From IMG/VR virus record IMGVR_UViG_3300045988_167206, positions 96,001-160,000 of that record: a DNA stretch of 64,000 nucleotides; one strand, given 5' to 3'. Under the pieces are notes generated by a model. It was not told where the DNA came from, ran no database searches, and was given only the letters and a program-made list of their open reading frames with translations. Source of the DNA: a virus. The position numbers were made by a program, and so were the translations under genes. Shown here piece by piece: positions 24,342 to 41,241 of the stretch (the stretch's first letter is position 1; each line of letters starts with the position of its first letter).

Positions 24342-25596
24342 CTACCTCATCTTCTAGTGACCCAAAGCAAGAATATAAGTCATTTAGATCAACTAAATCT
24401 GTAGGTTTAATCAATCCTTCTTCTTGCATATAATCTTTGAGATCAATATTTTCACGTAATAAAATACGTGAAATTTCTTTATAATTATCTAAATCAGTAC
24501 GTAAATTTGTGATCATTTGTCGCTGTTCTGCAACCATATCAGACCATTCAGATTCATCTAGACGTAATGCCTTTAATATAGAAGCATTACTCATATCCAT
24601 TACTTGTTGCATGCCTCGACAAGTTCCAATATCAAATCCGTTAACCTCACCTTCGCGAAGATTTAAGTCTTTTATTTTTTTGATTTTTCCGGTCCATGTA
24701 TTTTCGCCCTTTTTGGCATTTTTATTATTCTTTAAAGAAATACAGCTTTCAGCTGCCAAATCTTTTATAATAGTAGTTAGATCTTTTTTACTTTGCTGTA
24801 GGGATTTTATTGTAGCAGAATTATTTTTTAATTTATGAATATCAGACATATATGTAGAAATAGCATTGTCAATTTTAGACTGCTGAAGAAATGCTCGCAC
24901 AATAGAAATAGCAGAAGCAGTACGCATCATATCATCATTGGCATCTTCACTTGAATCAAGAAGTCCAAGTAATTGAGAATATAAAAACGGCTGATCAGAA
25001 ATAGCTTCTTTTTCGAATGGATCATAGCCAAGCAATCGAACTACATCATTTTTATTTTTCGTAAAACTACTATATGTATCCTGATTTTCACGACCTTTTA
25101 CCACATCGTCTGTAGTTTTTTCATCTTCATATACAATTTTTTCTTTGAATAAGTCAGAATCAGAAAATGTGTATCCGATATATTGTGGCATCGAAACATT
25201 TTTTATATACGAAGTCCAAGCATTTGTTTTGGATTTTCCTGTGATAGAATTTTCTGATTCTTGAATACTAGAATTGTAAAGACTTTCATAGAATGGTTTA
25301 TTTAGATATCTGAGAGCTTGAATAATAGATTCTTTTGTTGGTTCATGTTCTTCACCATTAACATCAATTCGTAATGCAATTTTTCTTGCACAATCCATGC
25401 AAATTGGAGAACATCCTGATTCACATAACGGATCGGTATTTTTATAAAATTTATCTTTTTTTTTAGGTTTTCCACATAGAAAACACCAAGCAGTGTTTTC
25501 TTTATAATTATTATTTTCGATTTCTAATTCTTTAATTCGGTTTCTCATTTGGGTCGGAGTCATCTTGACTTGCCCAGTTTCTTTTGTTGCTGCCAT
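24295..25596 (-). CDS. hypothetical Zn-ribbon protein upstream of terL (possible small terminase or packaging accessory)
   Basis: 433-aa ORF with CFLCGKP...CESGCSPICMDC. Function inferred from position only. Confidence 0.55.
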   Translation of the reverse strand: MAATKETGQVKMTPTQMRNRIKELEIENNNYKENTAWCFLCGKPKKKDKFYKNTDPLCESGCSPICMDCARKIALRIDVNGEEHEPTKESIIQALRYLNKPFYESLYNSSIQESENSITGKSKTNAWTSYIKNVSMPQYIGYTFSDSDLFKEKIVYEDEKTTDDVVKGRENQDTYSSFTKNKNDVVRLLGYDPFEKEAISDQPFLYSQLLGLLDSSEDANDDMMRTASAISIVRAFLQQSKIDNAISTYMSDIHKLKNNSATIKSLQQSKKDLTTIIKDLAAESCISLKNNKNAKKGENTWTGKIKKIKDLNLREGEVNGFDIGTCRGMQQVMDMSNASILKALRLDESEWSDMVAEQRQMITNLRTDLDNYKEISRILLRENIDLKDYMQEEGLIKPTDLVDLNDLYSCFGSLEDEVDADDGSETDEPASET

Positions 25597-25620
25597 AACA
25601 ACTCCTCCTTGTATTCGTAA

Positions 25621-25695
25621 TGGATATAGTAGGACTCGAACCTACAAAAGCCTGATCCTAAGTCAGGTGCGTCTGCCAAATTGCGCCATACATCC
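25621..25695 (-). tRNA. tRNA-Leu(TAG): tRNA-Leu-like, anticodon UAG, lacking the long variable arm
   Basis: Cloverleaf: acceptor GGATGTA/TATATCC, A73, anticodon stem CCTGA/TCAGG with loop CTTAGGA, 5-nt variable loop CTTTT, T arm GTAGG-TTCGAGT-CCTAC. The D arm TGGCGCAATTTGGCAGACGC resembles tRNA-Leu. Confidence 0.75.
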
Positions 25696-25769
25696 AGAGA
25701 AGGACAGTAAAGACTGTCCTGTAAAGAAATGTATAATATAAGCAGCAACGCCACTCGTATTATTTAAAT

Positions 25770-26957
25770 TTAATTTAATTTATATTTATGTTCGTCAACA
25801 ATACCATCGGTTTTATCAAATACAAACATTGATGCACCGGCATTAGCTGTTTTTCCAAGAGTCTCACTATATGGATTAAGTCCAATTATAGATCGAACAC
25901 TTATTGCTTCTGAATTTACTCCACCTTCTTCTGAAAATGAAGAGTGCCAATGTCCACTAAATAAATAATCAAATGGTACTTTATACATTTTTGATAAAGA
26001 TTTTAACTTGTCATTTAACTGCTTAGTCTCAAAATGTCCACCAATACAAGTGTGGCAAGCAAGTTGCGAATAAGCTAATCCTGTTGGATTTTCAATAATA
26101 GTGATATTATCATTGCCTTTTAATCTAGCTTTAATTAAGGTAAGCATGGATTTACTCATATCCTCATCCTTAAATGCGTCTTTTGGCTGCCCAACTAAGC
26201 GTAGCTGATTATGATTTGACCTTTTTACCATCTGAAATTTGATAATTACATGTTTACTTAATTCATTGAGCCATTCTGAAATAAAATTTGCATACAAAAT
26301 AGAAGAGTCGATAACTCCATATTTTAGAGTCATAAGCTGTGAATTAGCCCTTAAAATTCCTTCTAAAGCATCACCAAGATCCCAAATATGTAAAACCTTA
26401 ATATCGTCTTTATCAATTTGCTCTACTACTTTATAATATAATTCCCACATTCGTTGCTCAAAAATTTCAGGGCTATATTTATTAAGTGTATACCCGTAAA
26501 TATCTTTAATATCAAATTCAACGCCATAATGTGCGTCAGAAATAACTAATAAATAATCTTTACTGGTTACAAAAGGTTTAGTGATTATATTTTTAGGTAA
26601 TGTAACAGGTTTAATTTTTTCAATCGCTTCAACAATTTTTTCCGTAATTAATTCATCACGAGAGTATTCTCGTAACCATTTATTAAATTCTAATTTTTCA
26701 CTCTGAAGTTTAATGCGTTCTTTTTTAATAGCTAATTCTTCAGGTAAAGTTGAAATAGAAGAGGATGGGACAATATCCCATCCTGCATCTACATATTCTA
26801 ATAATAATTTTGATCCTTTTCGTACAGTATCACGGTGTTCTGTTTCTCCAAGTGCATCTGCTCTAAAATCAGTTATATCTTGCCATTCAATTGAAGGATC
26901 TATTTGTTTACGCTTAATTAAATCAAGCTGTTGCTGTAAAAATTGATTGTTATCCAT
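25770..26957 (-). CDS. calcineurin-like metallophosphoesterase
   Basis: Motifs LVISDAHYG, HIWDLGDALEG, RSNHNQL and SGHWH. Confidence 0.75.
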   Translation of the reverse strand: MDNNQFLQQQLDLIKRKQIDPSIEWQDITDFRADALGETEHRDTVRKGSKLLLEYVDAGWDIVPSSSISTLPEELAIKKERIKLQSEKLEFNKWLREYSRDELITEKIVEAIEKIKPVTLPKNIITKPFVTSKDYLLVISDAHYGVEFDIKDIYGYTLNKYSPEIFEQRMWELYYKVVEQIDKDDIKVLHIWDLGDALEGILRANSQLMTLKYGVIDSSILYANFISEWLNELSKHVIIKFQMVKRSNHNQLRLVGQPKDAFKDEDMSKSMLTLIKARLKGNDNITIIENPTGLAYSQLACHTCIGGHFETKQLNDKLKSLSKMYKVPFDYLFSGHWHSSFSEEGGVNSEAISVRSIIGLNPYSETLGKTANAGASMFVFDKTDGIVDEHKYKLN

Positions 26958-26965
26958 ATTTCTCC

Positions 26966-27214
26966 TTAAAGTTTCATTCCATCGGTTGCAGATCCAGAGA
27001 TTTCATCCAGATCAATAGTTTCTTCTGTTTTAGTAGTAGTAGATAAGTCAAAAGGCATATCTCCATAAGCCTTTTTAAAAATTTCATTGATGTCGATAAT
27101 TTCACCTGTACTATCAACAAGCTGATCATCTACCACATGTAGTCCTTTAAGTTTTCCATCGTATTTTACAGTTTTTTTTAATTCCATTATTTTTCTCCTT
27201 TTATTCCTTGACAT
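26966..27214 (-). CDS. hypothetical acidic protein (82 aa)
   Basis: ORF with SD; no family recognised. Confidence 0.5.
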   Translation of the reverse strand: MSRNKRRKIMELKKTVKYDGKLKGLHVVDDQLVDSTGEIIDINEIFKKAYGDMPFDLSTTTKTEETIDLDEISGSATDGMKL

Positions 27215-27269
27215 ATTGAAATAATCAATATAAAATGTTATTAGTGAAAGTTTACAATAAAATGTCTTA

Positions 27270-27872
27270 TTAAAGAATATCGTCTAATTCAAGATCCTGG
27301 CCAATAATTCCATCGACAATTCCACGTTCTTTAGCTTCTTCAGCAAACATATAATATTCACGATCCTTAATTTCTTCAAGAAATTCTGCAGTCATATTTG
27401 AATGTTCGATCATAAACTTATTCATACGCTCTTCAAGTGTGTCATAGAATTTCTGAATATCTTTTCCTTTATTTGAAGAGCTGATGTATCCTGTTTGTCC
27501 ATCATGATGAAGAACTACGGTTCCCGGGAAACAATATCTTTTATGTCCAGCTGCTAAAATATAACAAGCCATAGAAGCACACCTTGCAAAACCTATTGTT
27601 ACAATAGGTGTTTTAGACGTACAGATAGTACCTAATACCTGATAACCACATACGACATCACCGCCGCAGGAATTAATATATATATAAATTTTTTTTCGTT
27701 TACTAATAGGAATATCTTTATCTTCTTTATTCCATTTCATAATCATAAGACATACATTTTCAATGACATTATCATCGATATCCTCATTCAAAATGATTTT
27801 ACGTTCATTTAAATGTTCTTTTATAATAGCATCATAAATGCAATCATCATCTTTTAATGTAAATAATTCCAT
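27270..27872 (-). CDS. ClpP-family serine protease-like protein
   Basis: INSCGGDVVCGYQVLGTI...IGFARCASMACYILAAG...VVLHHDGQ aligns with the ClpP Ser and His motifs. Start moved to MELFTL behind a GGAG. Confidence 0.75.
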   Translation of the reverse strand: MELFTLKDDDCIYDAIIKEHLNERKIILNEDIDDNVIENVCLMIMKWNKEDKDIPISKRKKIYIYINSCGGDVVCGYQVLGTICTSKTPIVTIGFARCASMACYILAAGHKRYCFPGTVVLHHDGQTGYISSSNKGKDIQKFYDTLEERMNKFMIEHSNMTAEFLEEIKDREYYMFAEEAKERGIVDGIIGQDLELDDIL

Positions 27873-27903
27873 TTTATTTTCTCCATGTTTTCCTAAATAT
27901 ATT

Positions 27904-29349
27904 TTATAATGCAACAACCATATCTTTAACAGAAGCGACTACTTTAAATGTTTTATCTTCTTTTGATATGGCATCTTTCAAATCTTTTTTTAAACTATTT
28001 TTTGCTACTTCAGATCCATGTACTAAAATCAATTTTTCTGTATTAATTTTAGATCCATATGTAATAAGTTCATTTCGATTTGCATGACTTGAAAATGTTC
28101 CAAGCGATATACAATCTGCTTTATTTTCAACACCATCTCCACTGATCTTTATAATTTTGTTTTCCTTATAGTTTTTTATTCTATAAGACAAATAAGAGTT
28201 GTCGGATCCAGTGTATCCACTAAAAATAACCATACTATTTTCATCGCTGAGATATTCATGTAAATAAGATAAAATACGTCCGTTTGTACAAAATCCAGAA
28301 CTACTTAATATAATTTTAGGCCGATGATCTTTTACAATTGCCAAAGAGTCTTCTTTTTCACGAATAAAATGAACTTTATTCCATCCTACAACTTTATTCC
28401 ATAGTTTTAACTCTTCTTCAGATAAAAGAGTAGAGTATAAGTCACAAATATCACATGATAATATAGAATCAACTATAATATCGTAATTAAATGAAATATC
28501 ATGATAGATATTGTACAAATTAGTAAGAATTTCTTGAGTCCTACTAAAACTAAAGCATGGCATAATAACAGATCCACCACGTTCAGTTACGGTATCAATC
28601 GCAGTTTTTAAATGATCCAAATCGAATTTTCGAGTCTTTTTATTTATTCGTCCTGGTTCTCCATATGTAGATTCCATAATTGTAATTTTGTTAAAATCTG
28701 TTGGAATTTCTGTATTATGAACATAATGATTTTTGGTATTTAAAGAACCAATATCAGAAGTGTATAAAATAGATTTTGAAACACCATTTTGATCTCGAAG
28801 CGTAAGCTGAAGCTGTCTAGCTCCAACACAATGACTATTCTCATACCATTTAAAAGAAACAATATCGTCAAGAATATACTGTATATGTAACTCATCATAT
28901 TCAACAATATATTTCAAAGTATTCATAACATCATTTTCTTCATAGATAGGAGAGTAGTTTCGTTTATATTTAAATGATAAGGCGTTTGCTTCACTAAATA
29001 AAATAAAAGCACAGTTATAAAGTAAAGGCTTCATAAGTTGTGCAGTAGCGTGTGAAGCGATAATTTTTCCAGTAAATCCTTCTTTAACTAATCTTGGTAG
29101 CAACCCAATATGATCAACATGAGTATGGCCAACAAACACATAATCAATTTCAGAAGGCTTAAAAGGAAATTTGGCAGAGTTTATATTATATGATTCAAGA
29201 TAATTGTTATTTTGGTAAAGACCGCATTCCAATAAAATCTTTTTTCCATTAAACTTAATATAAATACAACTGCCGGTAACATCGTTGGCATTTTGTCCAA
29301 TTAAATAAATGCCATCGTCTTTTTTCTTTTTGCTGATATCCAACACCAA
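27904..29349 (-). CDS. beta-CASP metallo-beta-lactamase-fold nuclease (RNase J/CPSF-like)
   Basis: HxHxDH motif (VGHTHVDHIG), a C-terminal SSHANRNEL beta-CASP His motif, and the typical 481-aa size. Confidence 0.8.
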   Translation of the reverse strand: MVLDISKKKKDDGIYLIGQNANDVTGSCIYIKFNGKKILLECGLYQNNNYLESYNINSAKFPFKPSEIDYVFVGHTHVDHIGLLPRLVKEGFTGKIIASHATAQLMKPLLYNCAFILFSEANALSFKYKRNYSPIYEENDVMNTLKYIVEYDELHIQYILDDIVSFKWYENSHCVGARQLQLTLRDQNGVSKSILYTSDIGSLNTKNHYVHNTEIPTDFNKITIMESTYGEPGRINKKTRKFDLDHLKTAIDTVTERGGSVIMPCFSFSRTQEILTNLYNIYHDISFNYDIIVDSILSCDICDLYSTLLSEEELKLWNKVVGWNKVHFIREKEDSLAIVKDHRPKIILSSSGFCTNGRILSYLHEYLSDENSMVIFSGYTGSDNSYLSYRIKNYKENKIIKISGDGVENKADCISLGTFSSHANRNELITYGSKINTEKLILVHGSEVAKNSLKKDLKDAISKEDKTFKVVASVKDMVVAL

Positions 29350-29371
29350 CTTTCAGTATATTTAACATATA

Positions 29372-29584
29372 TTAAAAACGAAAATCTTGTTTGTTTTTGC
29401 TTTTATAAAGATCAGTCTGGTGTCTGGATTTTCTATAATCATTTAGAAGCTGCACACTTCTATATCGAGTAGTTAACCAGTATTTCTTTCCTCTACTTTT
29501 ATGAGTTTTACTTGTAACGTGTACATCGAATCCTCGTCCTTTTGAACGTAGATATTCTGCTTCTTTTGAAGTAATAGTAATCAA
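29372..29584 (-). CDS. small basic protein (70 aa)
   Basis: TTG start behind GTGAGGA. K/R-rich, possibly nucleic-acid binding. Confidence 0.5.
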   Translation of the reverse strand: MITITSKEAEYLRSKGRGFDVHVTSKTHKSRGKKYWLTTRYRSVQLLNDYRKSRHQTDLYKSKNKQDFRF

Positions 29585-29628
29585 ATTTATTTCCTCACTT
29601 TTAAATTATTTCTCCAATCAGGAGATAA

Positions 29629-29711
29629 TGGGAAGTGATGGAGTTGAACCACCCGAGTCTTTCGACAACAGATTTACAGTCTGCCCCGCTACCCCTACGG
29701 TATAACTTCCC
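29629..29711 (-). tRNA. tRNA-Tyr(GTA): tRNA-Tyr (GTA), class II
   Basis: Acceptor GGGAAGT/ACTTCCC, anticodon loop CTGTAAA, long variable arm, T loop TTCAACT. Confidence 0.85.
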
Positions 29712-29859
29712 TTGTTTTCTTTACTTTTTCATCTTGGCTGAGGATTTGTGCCCTCCAACCAAAGATATAGTCTGTGTACTTTAGACTGCCATTTACTTTA
29801 CACTCTAAATGGTCAAAACGTAACCGAGGCTGCTGGCGCGACCAGTGCATGTCAGTTAA

Positions 29860-29931
29860 CACACCCTCAAGGACTCGAACCCTGTTCTACGGTTTTGGAG
29901 ACCGTCATAATACCACATATACCAAAGGTGC
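29860..29931 (-). tRNA. tRNA-Trp(CCA): tRNA-Trp (CCA)
   Basis: Anticodon stem ACGGT/ACCGT with loop CTCCAAA; T arm CAGGG-TTCGAGT-CCTTG. Confidence 0.8.
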
Positions 29932-29941
29932 AAAAAAATAA

Positions 29942-30023
29942 CGCCGTGCACACGATTCGAACGTGCAAGTCCTTTCAGACCAACAGTTTTCAAGACTGCT
30001 CCCTCACCACCCGGACACACGGC
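29942..30023 (-). tRNA. tRNA-Ser(TGA): tRNA-Ser (TGA), class II
   Basis: Acceptor GCCGTGT/GCACGGC, loop CTTGAAA, long variable arm, T arm GCACG-TTCGAAT-CGTGT. Confidence 0.8.
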
Positions 30024-30030
30024 ATAATAA

Positions 30031-30103
30031 AGCTGAAATAGAGACTTGAACTCTAAACCTGCTGATTACAAATCAGCTGCTCTGCCAATTGAGCTATTCC
30101 AGC
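30031..30103 (-). tRNA. tRNA-Thr(TGT): tRNA-Thr (TGT)
   Basis: GCTGGAATAGCTCAATTGGCAGAGC..., anticodon loop TTTGTAA, T loop TTCAAGT. Confidence 0.85.
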
Positions 30104-30169
30104 AAAATCCGTCTTTCCGGATTGTCAGACCGAGATACCAGTCATTTACTAATTAAATTTTAAACTTGC

Positions 30170-30198
30170 TTGACAAAAATATCCAATAATGGTATTAT
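30170..30198 (+). promoter_or_regulatory. near-consensus sigma-A/sigma-70 promoter firing antisense to the tRNA operon
   Basis: TTGACA (30170-30175), 17-nt spacer, TATTAT (30193-30198). Confidence 0.7.
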
Positions 30199-30360
30199 CC
30201 CATTCGTTAGAGGTCGAGAATCCCAAAAGGATTCATAGGAAGATAGTGCAAACTGGACTCCGTGGTAAACCAAGCAATATACAACGGTTATTATACGGCC
30301 GCCTTTATGGGCAGATTTTAGCTCATGTGCCTCCAATCGGTAGGAGAGGAGGTTTTTACT

Positions 30361-30441
30361 ATGAATGATTATATTACATATATTATTCTAGGACTTGATG
30401 CACTCGTATGGGTGCTGAAGGTTATTAAAACATTTTGTTAA
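30361..30441 (+). CDS. 26-aa hydrophobic peptide MNDYITYIILGLDALVWVLKVIKTFC (type I toxin-like or small membrane protein)
   Basis: GGAGG SD 8 nt upstream of the ATG, one predicted TM helix with a basic C-terminus, its own promoter and terminator. Below the ORF-track length cutoff. Confidence 0.55.
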   Translation: MNDYITYIILGLDALVWVLKVIKTFC

Positions 30442-30500
30442 TTTCTTGTTGTTGAGCTTGGCGGGATAATAATTCCATTATTGGATTAATCATAGTAGTA

Positions 30501-30537
30501 GAAGCTGCATCCTGCAGCTTCTTTCTTTGTGTTTTTT
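30501..30537 (+). terminator. rho-independent terminator of the mini-ORF transcript
   Basis: 9-bp stem GAAGCTGCA/TGCAGCTTC, 3-nt loop, then TTTCTTTGTGTTTTTT. Confidence 0.8.
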
Positions 30538-30632
30538 GATATGCTCCCAATCTAAAAGACCTGAGGTCTCCCAGGAAGGATTTTCACCTTCGAGTTCCCA
30601 GCATGGTGGGCGGTAACTGTTCATATCTTTAA

Positions 30633-30717
30633 CGCAAAGCAGAGTATTCGAAACTCAATCCAATAAAGGATCGCATGACTTAGCAGGTCAGCTCCGTGCC
30701 TCACGGATTTACTTTGC
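30633..30717 (-). tRNA. tRNA-Ser(GCT): tRNA-Ser (GCT), class II
   Basis: Acceptor GCAAAGT/GCTTTGC, D stem TCCG/CGGA, loop CTGCTAA, variable arm ATCC/GGAT, T loop TTCGAAT. Confidence 0.75.
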
Positions 30718-30785
30718 AATTTTAAAGGAGAGGGAGGATAAAACCTCCCCAGAAAAAAGAAAGAGGTAGTAACTATAACAAATCA

Positions 30786-30815
30786 ACAAAAAAATATTGA
30801 GTGTAAAACACTCAG
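30786..30815 (-). terminator. rho-independent terminator immediately 3' of tRNA-Leu(TAA)
   Basis: Minus strand: TGAGTG-TTTTA-CACTCA followed by ATATTTTTTTG. Confidence 0.65.
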
Positions 30816-30901
30816 TGCTATCTGTGGGACTCGAACCCACACTTCGTGTTTCAGAAACAGGATTTTAAGTCCTGTGCGCCTGCCAGTTACGCCAAGATAG
30901 C
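30816..30901 (-). tRNA. tRNA-Leu(TAA): tRNA-Leu (TAA), class II
   Basis: Acceptor GCTATCT/AGATAGC, A73, loop CTTAAAA, 17-nt variable arm, T arm GTGGG-TTCGAGT-CCCAC. Confidence 0.85.
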
Positions 30902-30912
30902 ATTTATTTATA

Positions 30913-30985
30913 AGCACTATATGAGAGTCGAACTCATATCATCTGATTGGAAGTCAGATATCATGTTCCGTTAAACCAATAGTGC
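30913..30985 (-). tRNA. tRNA-Gly(TCC): tRNA-Gly (TCC)
   Basis: Acceptor GCACTAT/ATAGTGC, loop CTTCCAA, T loop TTCGACT. Confidence 0.85.
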
Positions 30986-31016
30986 ATCGGCAGGGAAGCG
31001 GAATTCTGCCTTCTAA

Positions 31017-31036
31017 TTCTCTTATTACCTACTAAA
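31017..31036 (-). repeat. 20-nt spacer block, copy 1
   Basis: Plus-strand TTCTCTTATTACCTACTAAA; 18 of 20 nt identical to 31267-31286, exactly 250 nt away. Confidence 0.6.
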
Positions 31037-31140
31037 TTATAAAGAGCCATGGTTTTATAAAATTTCGGATCCTCTGTAGAAAGAGGATAACATTCTTTAT
31101 AATTACTCATTCTGAGATTATACTTAGTACTTCCCCAAAT

Positions 31141-31209
31141 AGCGGAGGCTGGATTTGAACCAACGTCTCTAGAGCATGAATCTAGCAAGGAACCGCTCCT
31201 CTACTCCGC
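31141..31209 (-). tRNA. tRNA-Met(CAT): tRNA with CAT anticodon (elongator Met or Ile2), short D loop
   Basis: Acceptor GCGGAGT/CCTCCGC with two mismatched inner pairs, anticodon stem CTAGA/TCTAG with loop TTCATGC, T loop TTCAAAT. Only 69 nt long, with G at position 37. Confidence 0.65.
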
Positions 31210-31266
31210 GTTATTCGTATATTTATGGTAGAACTATATCTATGTCGTCTTACAACATACAGCATG

Positions 31267-31286
31267 TTCACTTATTGCCTACTAAA
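31267..31286 (-). repeat. 20-nt spacer block, copy 2
   Basis: Plus-strand TTCACTTATTGCCTACTAAA. Confidence 0.6.
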
Positions 31287-31390
31287 GATTTCGTACTTAA
31301 ACCCGATCAGGAATATAATAAAATCACTCGGTTAACACATGCAATTATATTCCGTGTACCTATCTACACCAAACTTTCAGGCACCATAGT

Positions 31391-31462
31391 TGGAATGACG
31401 GGATTTGAACCCACAACGTCTTGGTCCCAAACCAAGCGGACTGCCAAGTTGTCCTACATTCC
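31391..31462 (-). tRNA. tRNA-Pro(TGG): tRNA-Pro (TGG)
   Basis: Anticodon stem CTTGG/CCAAG, loop TTTGGGA, T loop TTCAAAT. Confidence 0.85.
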
Positions 31463-31471
31463 AAAATTAAG

Positions 31472-31544
31472 CTCTCCCAGCAGGACTCGAACCTGCGACA
31501 CAACGGTTAACGGCCGTTTGCTCTACCAACTGAGCTATAAGAGA
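31472..31544 (-). tRNA. tRNA-Asn(GTT): tRNA-Asn (GTT) with C instead of U at position 33
   Basis: TCTCTTATAGCTCAGTTGGTAGAGC..., anticodon stem AACGG/CCGTT, loop CCGTTAA, T loop TTCGAGT. Confidence 0.75.
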
Positions 31545-31583
31545 ATGTAATCAGGGTAGGAAAGTATCCTACCCTATATTTAG

Positions 31584-31859
31584 TTACGCATTTACTGCTT
31601 CTTTGATCTGTTTTCCAAATTTACATCTTACAGCATTTTTAGCATCGACCATTACAGTTTCACCTGTTCTTGGATTACGAGCTGTACGAGCATCCTTATG
31701 TACTGTAGAAAGTGTAACGCCATCCATCAGTTTAACCTCATCGCCTTTTACAAGTGTATCAAATGTAACTGCCTGGATAGCTTCCATAACGGACTTAATA
31801 TCCTTCTGTGTAAATCCTGTCTTTGTTGCAACTTCTTTAATCATTTCTACTTTGTTCAT
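31584..31859 (-). CDS. hup: HU/IHF-family DNA-binding protein
   Basis: MNKVEMIKEVATKTGFTQKD...ARTARNPRTGETVMVDAKNAVRCKFGKQIKEAVN is a near-canonical HU sequence. Confidence 0.9.
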   Translation of the reverse strand: MNKVEMIKEVATKTGFTQKDIKSVMEAIQAVTFDTLVKGDEVKLMDGVTLSTVHKDARTARNPRTGETVMVDAKNAVRCKFGKQIKEAVNA

Positions 31860-31899
31860 TATAAATTTCTCCTTTTATTCATTAAAAATATAGTATTTT

Positions 31900-31932
31900 G
31901 TGTATAATAAAAGCGGTGCATAAAACACCGCT
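31900..31932 (-). terminator. rho-independent terminator
   Basis: Stem AGCGGTG/CACCGCT followed on the minus strand by TTTTATTAT. Confidence 0.65.
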
Positions 31933-31949
31933 GATATTGACGAGTTTAT

Positions 31950-32288
31950 TTAGTTGAAAATATTATTTGCGATCTCAGCTCCACGATCACCAAGAATTTC
32001 ACAAGATATAATGTAAGACACAATCTCATTTCCTTCTTTGTCTTCACGTTTTACTTCGATGCCTTTACATTTTGGATTTTTACATGCCATAATGTTTCCG
32101 TGAATATAAGTCATTGGAAGACCACATGCTTTACATATATGCTTATTAACGAATGTTTTTTGCTGTTCTGCAAGCTTTTCGCTATCTCGTGTCTTTTTGA
32201 TGACTGGTTTCATTCCCCAACCTTCTCTAAGAGCAGCTAAAGATGTGTAATGTTCAGTAGTTCCCTTTGACATTCTATAGTTGTTCAT
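31950..32288 (-). CDS. Zn-ribbon protein (112 aa)
   Basis: CKACGLP...CKNPKCKG, with a good SD (AAGGAG). Confidence 0.6.
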   Translation of the reverse strand: MNNYRMSKGTTEHYTSLAALREGWGMKPVIKKTRDSEKLAEQQKTFVNKHICKACGLPMTYIHGNIMACKNPKCKGIEVKREDKEGNEIVSYIISCEILGDRGAEIANNIFN

Positions 32289-32562
32289 TGTAGATCTCCT
32301 TGTTTCTCAAATAATTATTTGTACACCCGGATGTACCAAGCCCATCCGGTAAGGCATTACCATTATCAAATTCGAATCCCATATTTCAACACGCATCGGC
32401 AATAGCGCAGAAGGTTTTACTTTTTTTCAAACAGCTGTCTGACCACATGTATCCATATTCTACGTATAAACATGGACCTGAAGGATCAACGAAGCAAAAA
32501 GTTATTCCCCTCATATACCACACGCTATTCGAATTGCGAAAAACACTGATTTTATAAAGGTT

Positions 32563-35430
32563 TTAGAGCAACTTTTTTTTTGATATTCTGCAGTTTTTCC
32601 GGAAATTTTGCAAAAATGCATTTTTGTCCATTCTATAAAGAAGATTTAAAAGATTGCGAGTGTATCTTGAATAATCTTTCTTTTTTCCTCTTGTACTTGT
32701 ATTCAAAGCAATTTCAATTAAACGGCTCATTGTTTTCGGATTAGAAATTTTCATTTTTCGTAAATCAGTTAAAATTTCTTCAAATCTTTCTGTATAAGCC
32801 ATGATATCATCGTCAGACATATCATCTTTACTCAATTCATCTAATTCTTTGGCATAATTAATAATTTTTTCCATTTGTCTGTGATTAGCCTTTCCAGGTA
32901 CATCAACGATAAATTCTTTTATAGGAATAGCATCTTTTTGTGATGCCGGTGCAATCTCATTTAATATTCTTTCAAGAAAATTCATAGGACATATATAATA
33001 GGAAGAAACTCTGTTATAAAGTTTGTTTTTCTGTTCCATAACAATCTCTCTATCAATTTCTTTACCATTTTTGGTATAAGCAATTTTTCGTGTAAACTTC
33101 ATAAATTCCGGGAAATCTCGTTTTATTTTTTTCACATTTCCATCTTTATCAGTAATCTCTTCAACCTGGCACATACATGGCAACCCCTTTATTCGTTTAA
33201 TTTCTTCTATAGCGTCAACTTCATACTCTCGTTTACATCCATCAATAATAACCTGGGCTAATACAGAAAGAATCACAAAATTATCGTATAATTCTTTGGA
33301 TGGTTCGGTCCAATAGTATGTCATAGCAAGCTGTGCTAAGTTACTAGATTCTCCGATACCAATACGTGATTTTGCAAATTTGTTATCCATACGAGCATAT
33401 TCCTTCATTGTATTCTTATAGGTAAGACCACTTTCTTTAAGTTTGTTCACTATAGTAGGATATTTTTCGTATGCGGCTTTCGCACTTTTTACCATTACTG
33501 GATTATTGGTCACAAAGAAAAAATCGGAATCAAAATCACATCCATTGGCACGATCCTGAATATCTGTTTCGATACAGTTCACAAACATAATGTTGTTACT
33601 TATCTTAAAATAACGAGATAATTCAGGACTATAATGATTATGTAAATAGCAAATGTTATTTGGACTATTATGTGGATTTCTGATACCACATAGATATTCG
33701 CCATCATCAAAACGAGTAGTATAACACTGAATTGTTCCAGGCTCCGGGCGAAGAGTGGGATCTGACTCCGGATCTTCACCAACTGCTTTTAATAAAAGTG
33801 CATATGGATTACCAAAAATCGTAAGATTGTCGCCGTCTATAGTAATTTTACCGTTACGAAGTCTATTTACATAGTTACGAAGAATCTGCCTTTTCTCGTA
33901 TCTAAACCAAGTACTATCACCAAATTCATAGTCCTGGTCATATAGATCTGCTAACATCTCATAATGGTTTACTATAGTAGCATTTTTTCTCAGGAACCGC
34001 TCGAAGATATCATTTTCCAGCTTCATATCTTCAACATAATCAACACTGGTTCTCGCCAATTCACGTACTTCAGACATTCCACAGCATAATAATTCACTAT
34101 CTTCTTCATAAGATGGGAGAGTATTGATCATCTGATAGCTCATCTGCTGAACGCTGCCTAATTTACTTGGATGATCAGTTTTTACCACGCCCCAGTAGCT
34201 TCCGTCTGCATCAACACGATCACACCAATATTTATAGGCCGCTTCAGGTGTTTTTCCCATCAAATCCATGAATTTCTTCCATTTAATGGCATTATCAGTA
34301 GTGATCATCTTAATATCTTTGAGTTTGTGTGATACTCCGAACATATCTTTAACTTCATATGTTTCGTAGTCTAAATCATGTTCCTCGCACCAGTCCTTAA
34401 AAAATAGCTGCAATTTACTTTTGATTGCACATGCCTTAAAGAAATGTTGCCTGAGCAACGCCATACCATTGATCCATTTAGGTAAAATAGAGATATCTGC
34501 AAGAGCAAGTCCATCATGTAATGTATTTTTTACCTCTGTCTCTTCATCAGAAACAACACATTTTTTCTTTGTTACCGGCACCATTTTATATCTCCGGCTG
34601 AATTTAGGAGTAACACCATCTTTTAAAAATTTCTTCTCTCGAATAGCTTTTTGTTTTGCTGCTTCAGTAGCTTCTTCATCAAGAACCTTTTCGTATGCTA
34701 TATATTCTTCAGCTTTTACTATTTTAGCCATAGTCTTAAAAAAGCTATCAGTGTCCTTTAGAATCAAAATATCTCTAACAGGGCAATAAAACTTTCCTAC
34801 TATGGTAGAAGTAGTAAGAGGAGCATAAGCAGACATCTCTACAATTTTTGCATTATCAATAGGCATTTTCTTTCCGAGTCCCATTGTAAGCCAATCATAA
34901 GACTTCTTATATAATTTGCTATTGATAAACATTACCTGGCCGATCTTAGCTTTAGAGGAGTTACGATACAGCATTTTATAATTAATAGTCTGGCTTTTTT
35001 CACCATCTTTTTTAGTGTATTTCGATTTATATTCTATGTTAACTCCTTGATCATAGAACAACTCACGTATTTCATCCTTAGATAATTTCCAATAATTATC
35101 TTTATTTTTTTCTACATTATCAAATATCTGCTGGATTTTTTTCTTTGATTCCGCTGTAAGAGAAGCATCATGTTTAAAACCTTTAAATTGTTTACGTAAA
35201 TGATCAAGTTCTTCTTCGTAACTTCTGCTACCAAAATCAAAATCCAAACAGATAATATCTCTAGTACTCGTATCATTCCAAACATTAAGGCCATTTTCTC
35301 TAATCCAATCATAAAACAGACTATTGCTAAACATTGCTTCAGTCGAATCATAATGATCACGAACTCCCTGATTACAACCAAATAGAGTACCGGCTTTAAT
35401 ATTCCGTATTTTTAAACCAAATTCAGACAA
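32563..35430 (-). CDS. YonO / RdRP-like single-subunit two-barrel RNA polymerase candidate (955 aa)
   Basis: GIRNPHNSPNNICYL then, about 40 aa later, ANGCDFDSDFFFVTNNP (DFDSD = nt 33523-33537). This parallels the RNPxxHPGD...GGDbDGD catalytic segment of YonO/cellular-RdRP-type polymerases. N-terminal MLYRNSSKAKIGQVMF and MSAYAPLTTST resemble upstream RdRP-family blocks. TTG start. Confidence 0.55.
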   Translation of the reverse strand: MSEFGLKIRNIKAGTLFGCNQGVRDHYDSTEAMFSNSLFYDWIRENGLNVWNDTSTRDIICLDFDFGSRSYEEELDHLRKQFKGFKHDASLTAESKKKIQQIFDNVEKNKDNYWKLSKDEIRELFYDQGVNIEYKSKYTKKDGEKSQTINYKMLYRNSSKAKIGQVMFINSKLYKKSYDWLTMGLGKKMPIDNAKIVEMSAYAPLTTSTIVGKFYCPVRDILILKDTDSFFKTMAKIVKAEEYIAYEKVLDEEATEAAKQKAIREKKFLKDGVTPKFSRRYKMVPVTKKKCVVSDEETEVKNTLHDGLALADISILPKWINGMALLRQHFFKACAIKSKLQLFFKDWCEEHDLDYETYEVKDMFGVSHKLKDIKMITTDNAIKWKKFMDLMGKTPEAAYKYWCDRVDADGSYWGVVKTDHPSKLGSVQQMSYQMINTLPSYEEDSELLCCGMSEVRELARTSVDYVEDMKLENDIFERFLRKNATIVNHYEMLADLYDQDYEFGDSTWFRYEKRQILRNYVNRLRNGKITIDGDNLTIFGNPYALLLKAVGEDPESDPTLRPEPGTIQCYTTRFDDGEYLCGIRNPHNSPNNICYLHNHYSPELSRYFKISNNIMFVNCIETDIQDRANGCDFDSDFFFVTNNPVMVKSAKAAYEKYPTIVNKLKESGLTYKNTMKEYARMDNKFAKSRIGIGESSNLAQLAMTYYWTEPSKELYDNFVILSVLAQVIIDGCKREYEVDAIEEIKRIKGLPCMCQVEEITDKDGNVKKIKRDFPEFMKFTRKIAYTKNGKEIDREIVMEQKNKLYNRVSSYYICPMNFLERILNEIAPASQKDAIPIKEFIVDVPGKANHRQMEKIINYAKELDELSKDDMSDDDIMAYTERFEEILTDLRKMKISNPKTMSRLIEIALNTSTRGKKKDYSRYTRNLLNLLYRMDKNAFLQNFRKNCRISKKKLL

Positions 35431-37887: not shown

Positions 37888-38784
37888 CTAAACAAATACT
37901 AATTCGTTAATATAATCTCTGCCTTTGCCTTTAAATACCGGAATATTATTATCAATGGTCCAATAGGATCGTTGTGTTTCACATCTAATTTCTCCAATTC
38001 TTTTGTTATCATCTTTAACAGGTTTCCATCCTTCATGATTTTCATAAGTTTTAATACAACAGAATCCGCGTTGTTTGCCAATTTTAAAATCATTATCAAA
38101 ATCAATATTTTTCTGCTCATGTAACATTTCTTTAATGGCAGCAGTACTTTTATTCTGTAATTCCTTTTGTGTAAAATTTGCCTGGCCAACCATCTGAATA
38201 GAATTACGAATACAATCTTGCTGCCGCCAGAAAAAATAATTTGCGATCTCATCTTTAGAGAGATTAAAACACCTTGAATCAAAACCTCTGTATTTAAATT
38301 CAAGCGCATTCCATAAACGTTGCATATATTCAATATCGGATTTTTCTTTATCTGTTAAATCTTTATAAGTTCCACCCATATCATAATCCGGAATGTTTCT
38401 ATATCCATATCTTTCAATATTTTCCTTAAACATTTCTTCAAAAAATGTTGTAGCAAGAGCAGCAGAAGTGCTGACTATTTTCTGAATTCTATTATCAAAC
38501 CAAGGCTGAGTATCAAAATTTTTATAATCAATAAGAAGTAATGAAATTTCATCAGACTGAGTATATGCAAGAACACAATTCTGCACATTCTGACACATAT
38601 ATAATGCAGTCTGTTGCATAGTATCAATTAAAATATCATCAAATGGTTTCCTGAATCCTCTTGTAAAACTATGGAAGCTGCGGCCATCAAGTCTAATAAT
38701 TACCGGTAATCTTCGGATTAACTTTTGATCCGTAATCTTTTCGTAGTCTTTCATTCTAATATCTAAATCTGTATATGCTGGCAT
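37888..38784 (-). CDS. Thg1-like protein (tRNA-His guanylyltransferase family 3'-5' nucleotidyltransferase)
   Basis: VIIRLDGRSFHSF, AYTQSDEISLLL, GFDSRCF and YFFWRQQDCIRNS match the Thg1/TLP catalytic core blocks. Confidence 0.85.
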   Translation of the reverse strand: MPAYTDLDIRMKDYEKITDQKLIRRLPVIIRLDGRSFHSFTRGFRKPFDDILIDTMQQTALYMCQNVQNCVLAYTQSDEISLLLIDYKNFDTQPWFDNRIQKIVSTSAALATTFFEEMFKENIERYGYRNIPDYDMGGTYKDLTDKEKSDIEYMQRLWNALEFKYRGFDSRCFNLSKDEIANYFFWRQQDCIRNSIQMVGQANFTQKELQNKSTAAIKEMLHEQKNIDFDNDFKIGKQRGFCCIKTYENHEGWKPVKDDNKRIGEIRCETQRSYWTIDNNIPVFKGKGRDYINELVFV

Positions 38785-41191: not shown

Positions 41192-41227
41192 TATAACCGG
41201 TACACGATGAGTATATCACCAGCGAAA

Positions 41228-41241
41228 GGTAGTGTCAAGAG
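41228..41241 (+). repeat. 14-nt direct repeat GGTAGTGTCAAGAG, copy 1
   Basis: Identical copy at 41727-41740. Confidence 0.7.

Follow-up and report, generated by a model that had tools for sequence, protein, structure and literature searches.

The DNA considered here is a stretch of 64,000 nucleotides from IMG/VR virus record IMGVR_UViG_3300045988_167206 (positions 96,001 to 160,000 of that record), hereafter called the window, and the subject of this analysis is its gene for a predicted Thg1-like protein (TLP), a 3'-5' nucleotidyltransferase. Genes for a tape measure, a portal and a large terminase mark the window as belonging to a tailed phage (33% G+C), in agreement with a preliminary description of this DNA in which the enzyme was called phage-encoded; no near DNA relative was found for it among deposited phages. 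All accepted open reading frames (ORFs) between 1136 and 41024 lie on the minus strand and make up a 41-kb arm. The TLP ORF runs from ATG to stop and encodes 298 amino acids (aa); around it lie small ORFs of no known function, an amidoligase-like gene and the gene for a 955-aa protein, and the same arm contains an HU gene, a tRNA array and a beta-CASP nuclease gene (Table 1).

Assignment of the gene to the Thg1 family is supported by motifs and by profile matches far beyond chance, and the clear Thg1/TLP core described earlier is thereby upheld. Four motifs are present, namely IIRLDGRSFHSF (residues 29-40), AYTQSDEISLLL (residues 73-84), FDSRCF (residues 168-173) and WRQQDCIRNS (residues 186-195); the Pfam profile Thg1 (PF04446) matches residues 10-135 at 4.3e-30 (104.7 bits, with a cut-off of 29.2), the C-terminal profile Thg1C matches weakly (16.9 bits, under its cut-off of 26.3), and PHROG 4717, named 'tRNA-His guanylyltransferase', matches at 1.1e-76. 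The profile search that had been suggested for separating Thg1 from TLP subtypes favours the latter: in a PDB sequence search the best match is BtTLP of Bacillus thuringiensis (4kgk/4kgm; 4.3e-52, both domains covered), whereas human, Candida and yeast Thg1 and one archaeal TLP fall between 5e-12 and 1e-5 (human THG1 5e-12, C. albicans 9.4e-10). A motif of HINNLYN type distinguishes eukaryotic Thg1 from the TLP subtype, and where human THG1 has CHINNLY (D-C-H-I-N-N-L-Y), the window protein has CIRNSIQ (D-C-I-R-N-S-I-Q), which fits the TLP subtype. NCBIfam holds no model matching the window TLP, so the subtype assignment leans on the PDB, PHROG and fold comparisons, from which the gene is classed as a Thg1-family 3'-5' polymerase of the TLP subtype.

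An AlphaFold model built with 48 homologues (predicted local distance difference test 86.4; predicted template modelling score 0.84) was compared with the PDB by Foldseek, and the best 32 matches were all Thg1/TLP chains, with E values down to 6e-21. BtTLP chains occupy ranks 1-8 (target-normalised template modelling scores 0.80-0.86, 31-35% identity), followed by eukaryotic Thg1 and archaeal TLP structures; the confident model of the window TLP thus has the BtTLP fold, with a palm shared with the solved Thg1/TLP structures. In that palm, D33, D78 and E79 are the metal-binding carboxylates (D30/D75/E76 in BtTLP, D29/D76/E77 in human THG1), and E15, R31, T41 and S77 (BtTLP E12, R28, T38 and S74) are found together with K46; R171, R187, N194 and M198 correspond to BtTLP R131, R147, N154 and M158. 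The functional residues known from BtTLP, whether of the metal-binding, activation or nucleotidyl-transfer site (for their roles, see PMC3701042), are all present, and the active-site columns are unchanged in an alignment of six diverse phage TLPs, so that the protein is apparently an active, catalytically competent stand-alone enzyme.

Owing to two lineage-specific insertions, the window TLP is about 50 aa longer than BtTLP. The first is a gap in BtTLP and in the TLPs of Bacillus, Aeromonas, Erwinia and Mycobacterium phages, and is modelled as a helical extension (model helices at residues 96-130 and 145-163); the second is modelled as a long beta-hairpin with strands at residues 241-258 and 261-278. 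Separately, the TLP of a sister clade (L011:10001-10876 and L012:8456-9307; protein P0060) carries E12K, R28Q and E76K (BtTLP numbering) at three interacting nucleotidyl-transfer-site positions, and its activity may be altered.

Table 1. Features of the window, and tRNA-His genes of related phage loci (designated by L and a number).
Feature	Position	Strand	Basis
TLP gene (bacterial-type Thg1-like protein, 298 aa, predicted 3'-5' nucleotidyltransferase)	37888..38784	minus	ORF, Pfam, PHROG, PDB, AlphaFold/Foldseek
Catalytic palm domain of TLP, residues 10-135	38380..38757	minus	Pfam stretch; alignments to BtTLP, human THG1 and phage TLPs
Lineage-specific insertion 1 of TLP, about residues 123-166, between palm and C-terminal domains	38287..38418	minus	Alignment gap and model
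Lineage-specific hypervariable insertion 2 of TLP, residues 241-278, C-terminal domain	37951..38064	minus	Alignment gaps, variability and model
Sigma-70-like promoter, best match TTGACA-17-TATACT with TG, head of the TLP-containing leftward run	41210..41238	minus	Consensus match only
Terminator-like hairpin with T-run, separating the TLP-containing run from the HU gene and the tRNA array	31912..31932	minus	Consensus match only
tRNA array, nine genes: Asn, Pro, Met(cat), Gly, Leu(taa), Thr, Ser, Trp, Tyr	29629..31544	minus	ARAGORN, Rfam
8-nt tRNA-Ser/tRNA-Trp junction, site of the relatives' tRNA-His, which is cleanly absent in the window	29933..29940	minus	Comparison with relatives
beta-CASP metallo-beta-lactamase nuclease gene (context gene)	27904..29349	minus	Pfam Beta-Casp, RMMBL, Lactamase_B; NCBIfam
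Isolated tRNA-Leu(tag), tenth tRNA	25620..25696	minus	ARAGORN, Rfam
tRNA-His of relative L003	L003:19163-19235		
tRNA-His of relative L006	L006:20027-20100		
tRNA-His of relative L008	L008:19095-19167		

ARAGORN finds 10 tRNA genes in the window rather than the 11 first counted; nine tRNAs pass the Rfam gathering score, and for tRNA-Ser and tRNA-Tyr there are also sub-threshold Rfam matches. The array genes are spaced 2-11 nucleotides apart, CCA is encoded in none of them (as read from the ARAGORN drawings), and their products are candidate substrates of the TLP. Acceptor-stem positions 1-3 are paired in all window tRNAs except for C1.U72 of tRNA-Met(cat), by which tRNA 5' editing of the mitochondrial type is ruled out. 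The tRNA-Met(cat) itself (31140-31210, minus strand) has this C1.U72 atop its acceptor stem and is without the anticodon-stem G-C pairs expected in an initiator tRNA; it may be an elongator Met, Ile2-like or initiator-like tRNA. Neither a tRNA-His gene nor a remnant of one was found in the 64 kb by ARAGORN, by a permissive Rfam scan of 25400-32600 or by short-word BLAST with the tRNA-His genes of relatives. The earlier remark that the window has no tRNA-His is therefore true, yet misleading, as sister phages carry one.

These sister phages include loci L002-L010, whose TLPs are 62-81% identical and which share the gene order Bro-N, TLP, amidoligase-like, 955-aa, 112-aa, HU, tRNA array, 70-aa and beta-CASP; they represent one phage lineage with whole-arm synteny. 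Between tRNA-Ser and tRNA-Trp, a tRNA-His(GTG) gene occurs in L003, L006, L007, L008, L009, L010, L081 and L087, starting 2 nucleotides past tRNA-Ser and scoring 63.3 bits in Rfam with agreeing boundaries. It reads ...GCG-TT, then GTGACTA...TAGTCAC, then C: G1 pairs with C72, the discriminator is C73, position -1 is T (U), and neither a G at position -1 (G-1) nor CCA is encoded. The window, L002, L004, L011, L012 and L123 are without this gene. In comparison with L008, the window cleanly lacks the tRNA-His unit and has instead a tRNA-Thr unit, as does L002, whose array is 97% identical to that of the window. L003 and L004 encode an identical TLP protein and only L003 has the tRNA-His, so the loss of this tRNA can be very recent.

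The significance of this gene form lies in what other systems do with it. Bacterial tRNA-His genes normally encode G-1, which is paired to C73 and retained by an unusual RNase P cut, and archaeal tRNA-His genes without G-1 accompany a Thg1 homologue (PMC3245924). Since BtTLP adds G-1 about 50-fold better to C73 than to A73 tRNA-His (PMC3061083), the C73 tRNA-His without G-1 is, by analogy, of the substrate type that a TLP would extend efficiently. In an independent sample of viral tRNA-His genes (L168-L287, ARAGORN), which is biased by having been drawn with one T-loop pattern, 53/64 C73 genes have G-1 and 11/64 have T at -1, and three of those 11 belong to the same tRNA family as the relatives' tRNA-His. 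The flanks of 120 viral tRNA-His loci contained no TLP in the short stretches covered and are hence uninformative on association; BLAST of the lineage tRNA-His against GenBank phages gave four weak matches only.

Loss of the tRNA has not released the protein from constraint. The ratio of non-synonymous to synonymous substitution rates (dN/dS) of the TLP is 0.34 for the window against L002 and 0.15 for L011 against L012, all four without local tRNA-His, and 0.18-0.26 for most pairs with tRNA-His-positive members; the TLP is under purifying selection despite tRNA-His loss. The value of 0.34 is the highest among pairs well separated by synonymous change, and the surplus non-synonymous changes probably fall within the hypervariable hairpin insertion.

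These observations are brought together in a reading to which we assign a probability of roughly one half, namely that the window TLP is a stand-alone enzyme for the maturation and quality control of tRNA 5' ends, which carries out templated 3'-5' addition on 5'-phosphate ends, with substrates and a physiological role that we infer. Addition at tRNA 5' ends, as first proposed for this gene, is the sole biochemically documented activity for the TLP subtype: BtTLP first uses ATP or GTP to activate a 5'-monophosphate, next adds a nucleotide by Watson-Crick templating, and its preferred substrates are 5'-truncated tRNAs of any identity (PMC3061083). The phage enzyme would, on the BtTLP model, bind a 5'-monophosphate tRNA, activate its 5' end with ATP or GTP, and then extend that end 3'-5' by one or a few nucleotides at a time, each pairing with the opposite base on the acceptor 3' strand. 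Because the lineage tRNA-His gene (C73) has U at -1, its RNase P product should be released without G-1, and a templated G opposite C73 would restore the identity element normally needed by histidyl-tRNA synthetase; this would be the most concrete job of the enzyme in the lineage. As the window phage is without tRNA-His yet keeps its TLP intact and under purifying selection, general 5'-end maturation and quality control would also be part of its work, and the retained job there would be the fill-in of miscleaved or 5'-shortened phage or host tRNAs. The TLP would count as an accessory of the phage translation toolkit, not as part of a beta-CASP-specific module.

Several observations weigh against this reading. 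TLP is combined with an encoded G-1:C73 in L067/L085 and in the contig common to L183 and L354, and the tRNA-His of Fusobacterium phage FNU3 has G-1 with A73. The TLP-positive Bacillus phages Bc431v3, Bcp1 and QCM8 do have a G-1-less tRNA-His (C1-G72, A73, C or A at -1), but the same tRNA-His occurs in Tsamsa and Chewbecca, which are absent among the TLP matches listed (44/46 Bacillus records); B. thuringiensis itself, moreover, encodes BtTLP (PMC3061083). TLP is also carried by 13 Caulobacter and 7 Brevundimonas phage records, and the tRNA-His of C. crescentus needs no G-1 (PMC3064791). With no tRNA-His in the window, G-1 addition is not the whole story there, unless a tRNA-His lies elsewhere in the genome, and the literature searched yielded no study, enzymological or genetic, of a phage TLP. 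Exclusive pairing of TLP with G-1-less tRNA-His is ruled out by TLP phages that encode G-1 and by TLP-unlisted phages that do not; within the lineage the pairing is suggestive, and it is neither exclusive nor general.

Two side observations concern tRNA-His genes of other phages. Those of TLP-bearing phages are often non-canonical (L067:4239-4312, L085:3858-3932, L103:2694-2767, L341:13713-13786, L373:38498-38568 and L375:102-175): some combine G-1:C73 with mismatches U4.U69 and U5.U68, and L341, with U-1/U73, shares these mismatches. Xoo-sp15 (MN364664.1, 157 kb), labelled a Xanthomonas phage, has at 93176-93273 a tRNA-His 98% identical to that of Bc431v3, and its host label may be wrong.

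Elsewhere in the family, the neighbourhood of TLP is often one of RNA repair. Clustering of 3,019 ORFs within 4 kb of TLP, from 244 loci and 91 TLP lineages (at 70% identity), with Pfam run on the resulting families, gave RNA end-healing and repair families as the commonest neighbours: a 253-aa protein with metallophosphoesterase-like motifs and no Pfam match (22 TLP lineages), an AAA_33 P-loop kinase fused to HD (15), a calcineurin-like phosphoesterase (10), the 'RNA repair pathway' nucleotidyltransferase RlaP (9), microbial PARG of the Macro superfamily (8) and RNA ligase PF09414 (8). At least one such partner is found at 54/168 viral and 43/76 genomic TLP loci; the neighbourhoods confirm and extend a prediction made in 2010 (PMC2904730), and for the family as a whole they speak for a setting of RNA repair. 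In FNU3, which among deposited TLP phages is the closest, a 738-aa 'putative RNA ligase' (L373:39476-41692) is encoded next to a five-tRNA cluster, and a Macro-like gene (L374:30508-30939) is also present; both are partners of the set predicted in 2010.

Such a setting favours a counter-defence role, as surmised in the preliminary description and put forward before it by Aravind and colleagues, in which the TLP rebuilds the 5' ends of host or phage tRNAs shortened by a host defence nuclease or a 5'-3' exonuclease and thereby sustains translation. The FNU3 gene set agrees with this, as do the purifying selection on TLP in phages without local tRNA-His, its occurrence in phages of Caulobacter, a host not using G-1, and the documented tRNA-targeting defences and the phage tRNAs that evade them (PMC11555353). 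The TLP of the window lineage is nevertheless solo: tBLASTn with all members of the repair-partner families found none in the 64-kb window or at 14 lineage loci, and Pfam searches of 30 window ORFs gave no kinase-HD, phosphoesterase, RlaP, Macro/PARG or RNA ligase. A TLP without a kinase cannot use 5'-OH ends and is confined to ends already bearing a 5'-phosphate, such as RNase P products, with which the absence of partners fits. In addition, no anti-defence genes lie around the TLP, and no defence nuclease that trims tRNA 5' ends was found described in the limited literature examined; for the window, counter-defence repair appears somewhat unlikely. The same may be said, with more doubt, of a composite proposal in which TLP and G-1-less tRNA-His form a phage-controlled tRNA-His identity system in the lineage and the TLP retained in members without that tRNA, the window included, rebuilds 5'-damaged host tRNAs as counter-defence; such an identity system would, if true, be the first bacterial-virus case of obligatory post-transcriptional G-1 addition.

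The preliminary description had instead stressed the co-orientation of TLP, tRNA array and beta-CASP gene, and had joined them in one module, a proposal that could be developed into a dedicated pathway in which the beta-CASP nuclease (with ClpP) trims array tRNAs and the TLP rebuilds or edits their 5' ends, as in mitochondrial 5' editing. TLP, the 955-aa gene, HU, the tRNA array, beta-CASP and ClpP do stay together throughout the lineage, the array tRNAs are tightly packed with CCA unencoded, and a similar block (TLP, a 955-aa homologue of about 21% identity, ClpP, tRNAs, HU and an SbcD-like gene) is kept together in the distant group L341, L317 and L334. Common descent alone, however, predicts conserved order in a phage family, and since the whole arm is on the minus strand, shared orientation carries no information. 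A distance of 6.3 kb separates the TLP from the first tRNA, and the amidoligase-like gene, the 955-aa gene and the terminator-like hairpin lie in between; the hairpin suggests that the TLP run and the HU/tRNA array are separate transcription units. On other viral contigs, no tRNA lies within 10 kb of TLP at 59/88 and 65/80 loci (two sets), in Fnu1 no tRNA occurs within 12 kb of it, and outside the lineage beta-CASP is within 10 kb of TLP at 1/237 loci; from L317, where the block is conserved and TLP is kept, beta-CASP is missing, a partial case of one gene being lost without the other; these counts rule out a general TLP/beta-CASP or TLP/tRNA-array module. No window tRNA has multi-position 5' acceptor-stem mismatches of the sort that editing would correct, and the dedicated pathway is highly improbable. 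The block of the distant group is best read as family-level genome architecture, not a TLP-specific functional unit, and the tie of TLP to array and nuclease as mostly inherited gene order.

The other neighbours invoked in support of that module also look different on closer comparison. The beta-CASP gene was described as RNase J/CPSF-like: the gene is real and on profile evidence CPSF-like (CPSF/aCPSF1/Cas14-like), its best NCBIfam matches being Cas14 (1.7e-67) and aCPSF1, both far under cut-off, but the match to RNase J is very weak. A ClpP-type protease gene (27270-27917, minus strand) adjoins it with a 14-nt overlap; on the distant contig L341 (10784-12783) a beta-CASP gene and a ClpP-like gene are also next to each other, with their order inverted. 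The sole candidate for the metallophosphoesterase once noted nearby is 25770-26957, which has no Pfam match and matches PHROG families labelled 'exonuclease' and 'DNA repair exonuclease'; its product reads as an SbcD/Mre11-like DNA enzyme, not an RNA end-healing one. The part of RNA-repair partner is not supported for it, and no homologue of such partners was found in the window.

A last alternative is that the window TLP, having lost its tRNA-His substrate, is a leftover in decay or has been repurposed to act on non-tRNA RNA (5' activation, capping-like chemistry). The clean and possibly very recent loss of tRNA-His (L003/L004), the dN/dS of 0.34 for the window against L002, and the TLP of L011/L012, strongly conserved with three nucleotidyl-transfer-site residues changed, could be taken in its favour; nevertheless, the window ORF is intact, every functional residue is present, dN/dS is well under 1, and the non-synonymous excess probably belongs to the hairpin insertion, so that decay or repurposing is improbable.

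Although an unusual variant had been surmised, the gene belongs to a large and already annotated family. At least 161 GenBank phage records carry a TLP homologue, most annotated 'tRNA-His guanylyltransferase' and the largest groups by organism name being Bacillus (46), Prevotella (Lak; 15), Caulobacter (13) and Mycobacterium (11); the best GenBank phage match is that of Fusobacterium phage FNU3/Fnu1 (43% identity). Two pattern scans of IMG/VR gave at least 572 and at least 592 confirmed contigs with TLP, and at least 7,707 of 8,000 scored protein-database candidates are homologues at E <= 1e-10. The family has its own PHROG (4717), whose phage members (Bc431v3 gp143, Fnu1/FNU3) are 38-43% identical to the window TLP and come from large tRNA-bearing phages. 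The repair or counter-defence idea was published in 2010 (PMC2904730) and in 2021 (PMC7824862), the latter a survey of jumbo phages that counts Thg1 among phage RNA-repair enzymes, and the 2013 Bc431v3 paper had flagged gp143. The window gene is thus an uncultured addition to a known, annotated phage gene family; the identical protein is on record only on one 1.7-kb contig, and exact 41-mer searches of viral and metagenome contigs gave no match.

As to the host, the closest TLPs from bacterial assemblies show about 50% identity and come mostly from gut Clostridia and Lachnospiraceae, with some from Bacteroidales and Prevotella metagenome-assembled contigs. Locus L123, on the 499-kb scaffold QTYB01000001.1 (374484-395299) of the cultured gut Clostridia isolate Ruminococcus sp. 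AM36-2AA, has the block TLP, Bro-N, amidoligase-like, 955-aa, HU, a tRNA array lacking tRNA-His and the beginning of beta-CASP, with identities to the lineage of 76% for the 955-aa gene, 75% for HU and 46% for TLP. It points to a Clostridia host and possibly to a prophage-like state.

Three further features of the window deserve mention. The 955-aa protein (32563-35430, minus strand) matches phrog_8308, of unknown function, whereas Pfam, NCBIfam and PDB sequence searches gave nothing for it; it contains the motif GCDFDSDFFFV, which we take to be of the kind found in two-barrel RNA polymerases, and its homologue stays near TLP in the distant phage group even at about 21% identity. Within the tRNA array, a 711-nt ORF-free spacer (30104-30814, minus strand) is 76-84% conserved in L011 and L008, folds far more stably than shuffled controls (z = -5.6, 20 shuffles) and has no Rfam match; it may be an unknown structured RNA. 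The rightward arm (42398-63636, plus strand) carries genes with RadC-like JAB, DUF2786/DUF7168 and DUF932 matches and with weak ParB_N-like and DpnD/PcfM-like matches, a set presumably of the kind associated with leading regions of mobile elements.

Among known systems, BtTLP (4KGK/4KGM; PMC3061083, PMC3701042) is the closest solved relative by sequence and fold, and the same chemistry is expected of the window TLP, which differs in being phage-encoded, in its helical and beta-hairpin insertions, and in that its activity is predicted from sequence. Eukaryotic Thg1 (human THG1, 3OTB) and the editing TLPs of protist mitochondria share with it the superfamily and the catalytic carboxylates; human THG1 is a far weaker match with a different subtype motif, and the window tRNAs show no 5' mismatches calling for editing of the protist type. 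The archaeal TLPs (PMC3245924) pair a C73 tRNA-His without G-1 with a templating TLP, the same logic as in the sister phages, although the archaeal system is cellular and single-copy whereas the phage tRNA-His gene comes and goes while the TLP stays. Phage tRNA-His genes differ in turn, with C-1/A73 in Bc431v3, G-1/A73 in FNU3 and U-1/C73 in the relatives of the window, and the RNA ligase and Macro-like gene of FNU3 are partners not found in the window. T4 Pnkp/Rnl1 and the repair sets of jumbo phages (PMC7824862) have a proposed purpose in common with TLP, the maintenance of functional tRNAs during infection, but those systems heal and seal anticodon-loop breaks whereas TLP extends 5' ends, and the 64-kb window yielded no kinase, phosphatase or ligase.

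The 5'-repair activity of bacterial-type TLPs was described in 2010; useful by-products of the analysis are the G-1-less tRNA-His genes of the sister phages, which are a new point, and the repair-gene neighbourhoods of TLP elsewhere. The sister phages offer a natural C73 tRNA-His without G-1 a few kb from a solo TLP, and Bc431v3 or Bcp1 are cultured Bacillus phages with both a TLP and a G-1-less tRNA-His. If TLPs do mature or repair tRNAs in infection, they would be counted, like phage tRNAs and RNA ligases, among the means by which translation is sustained in attacked cells.

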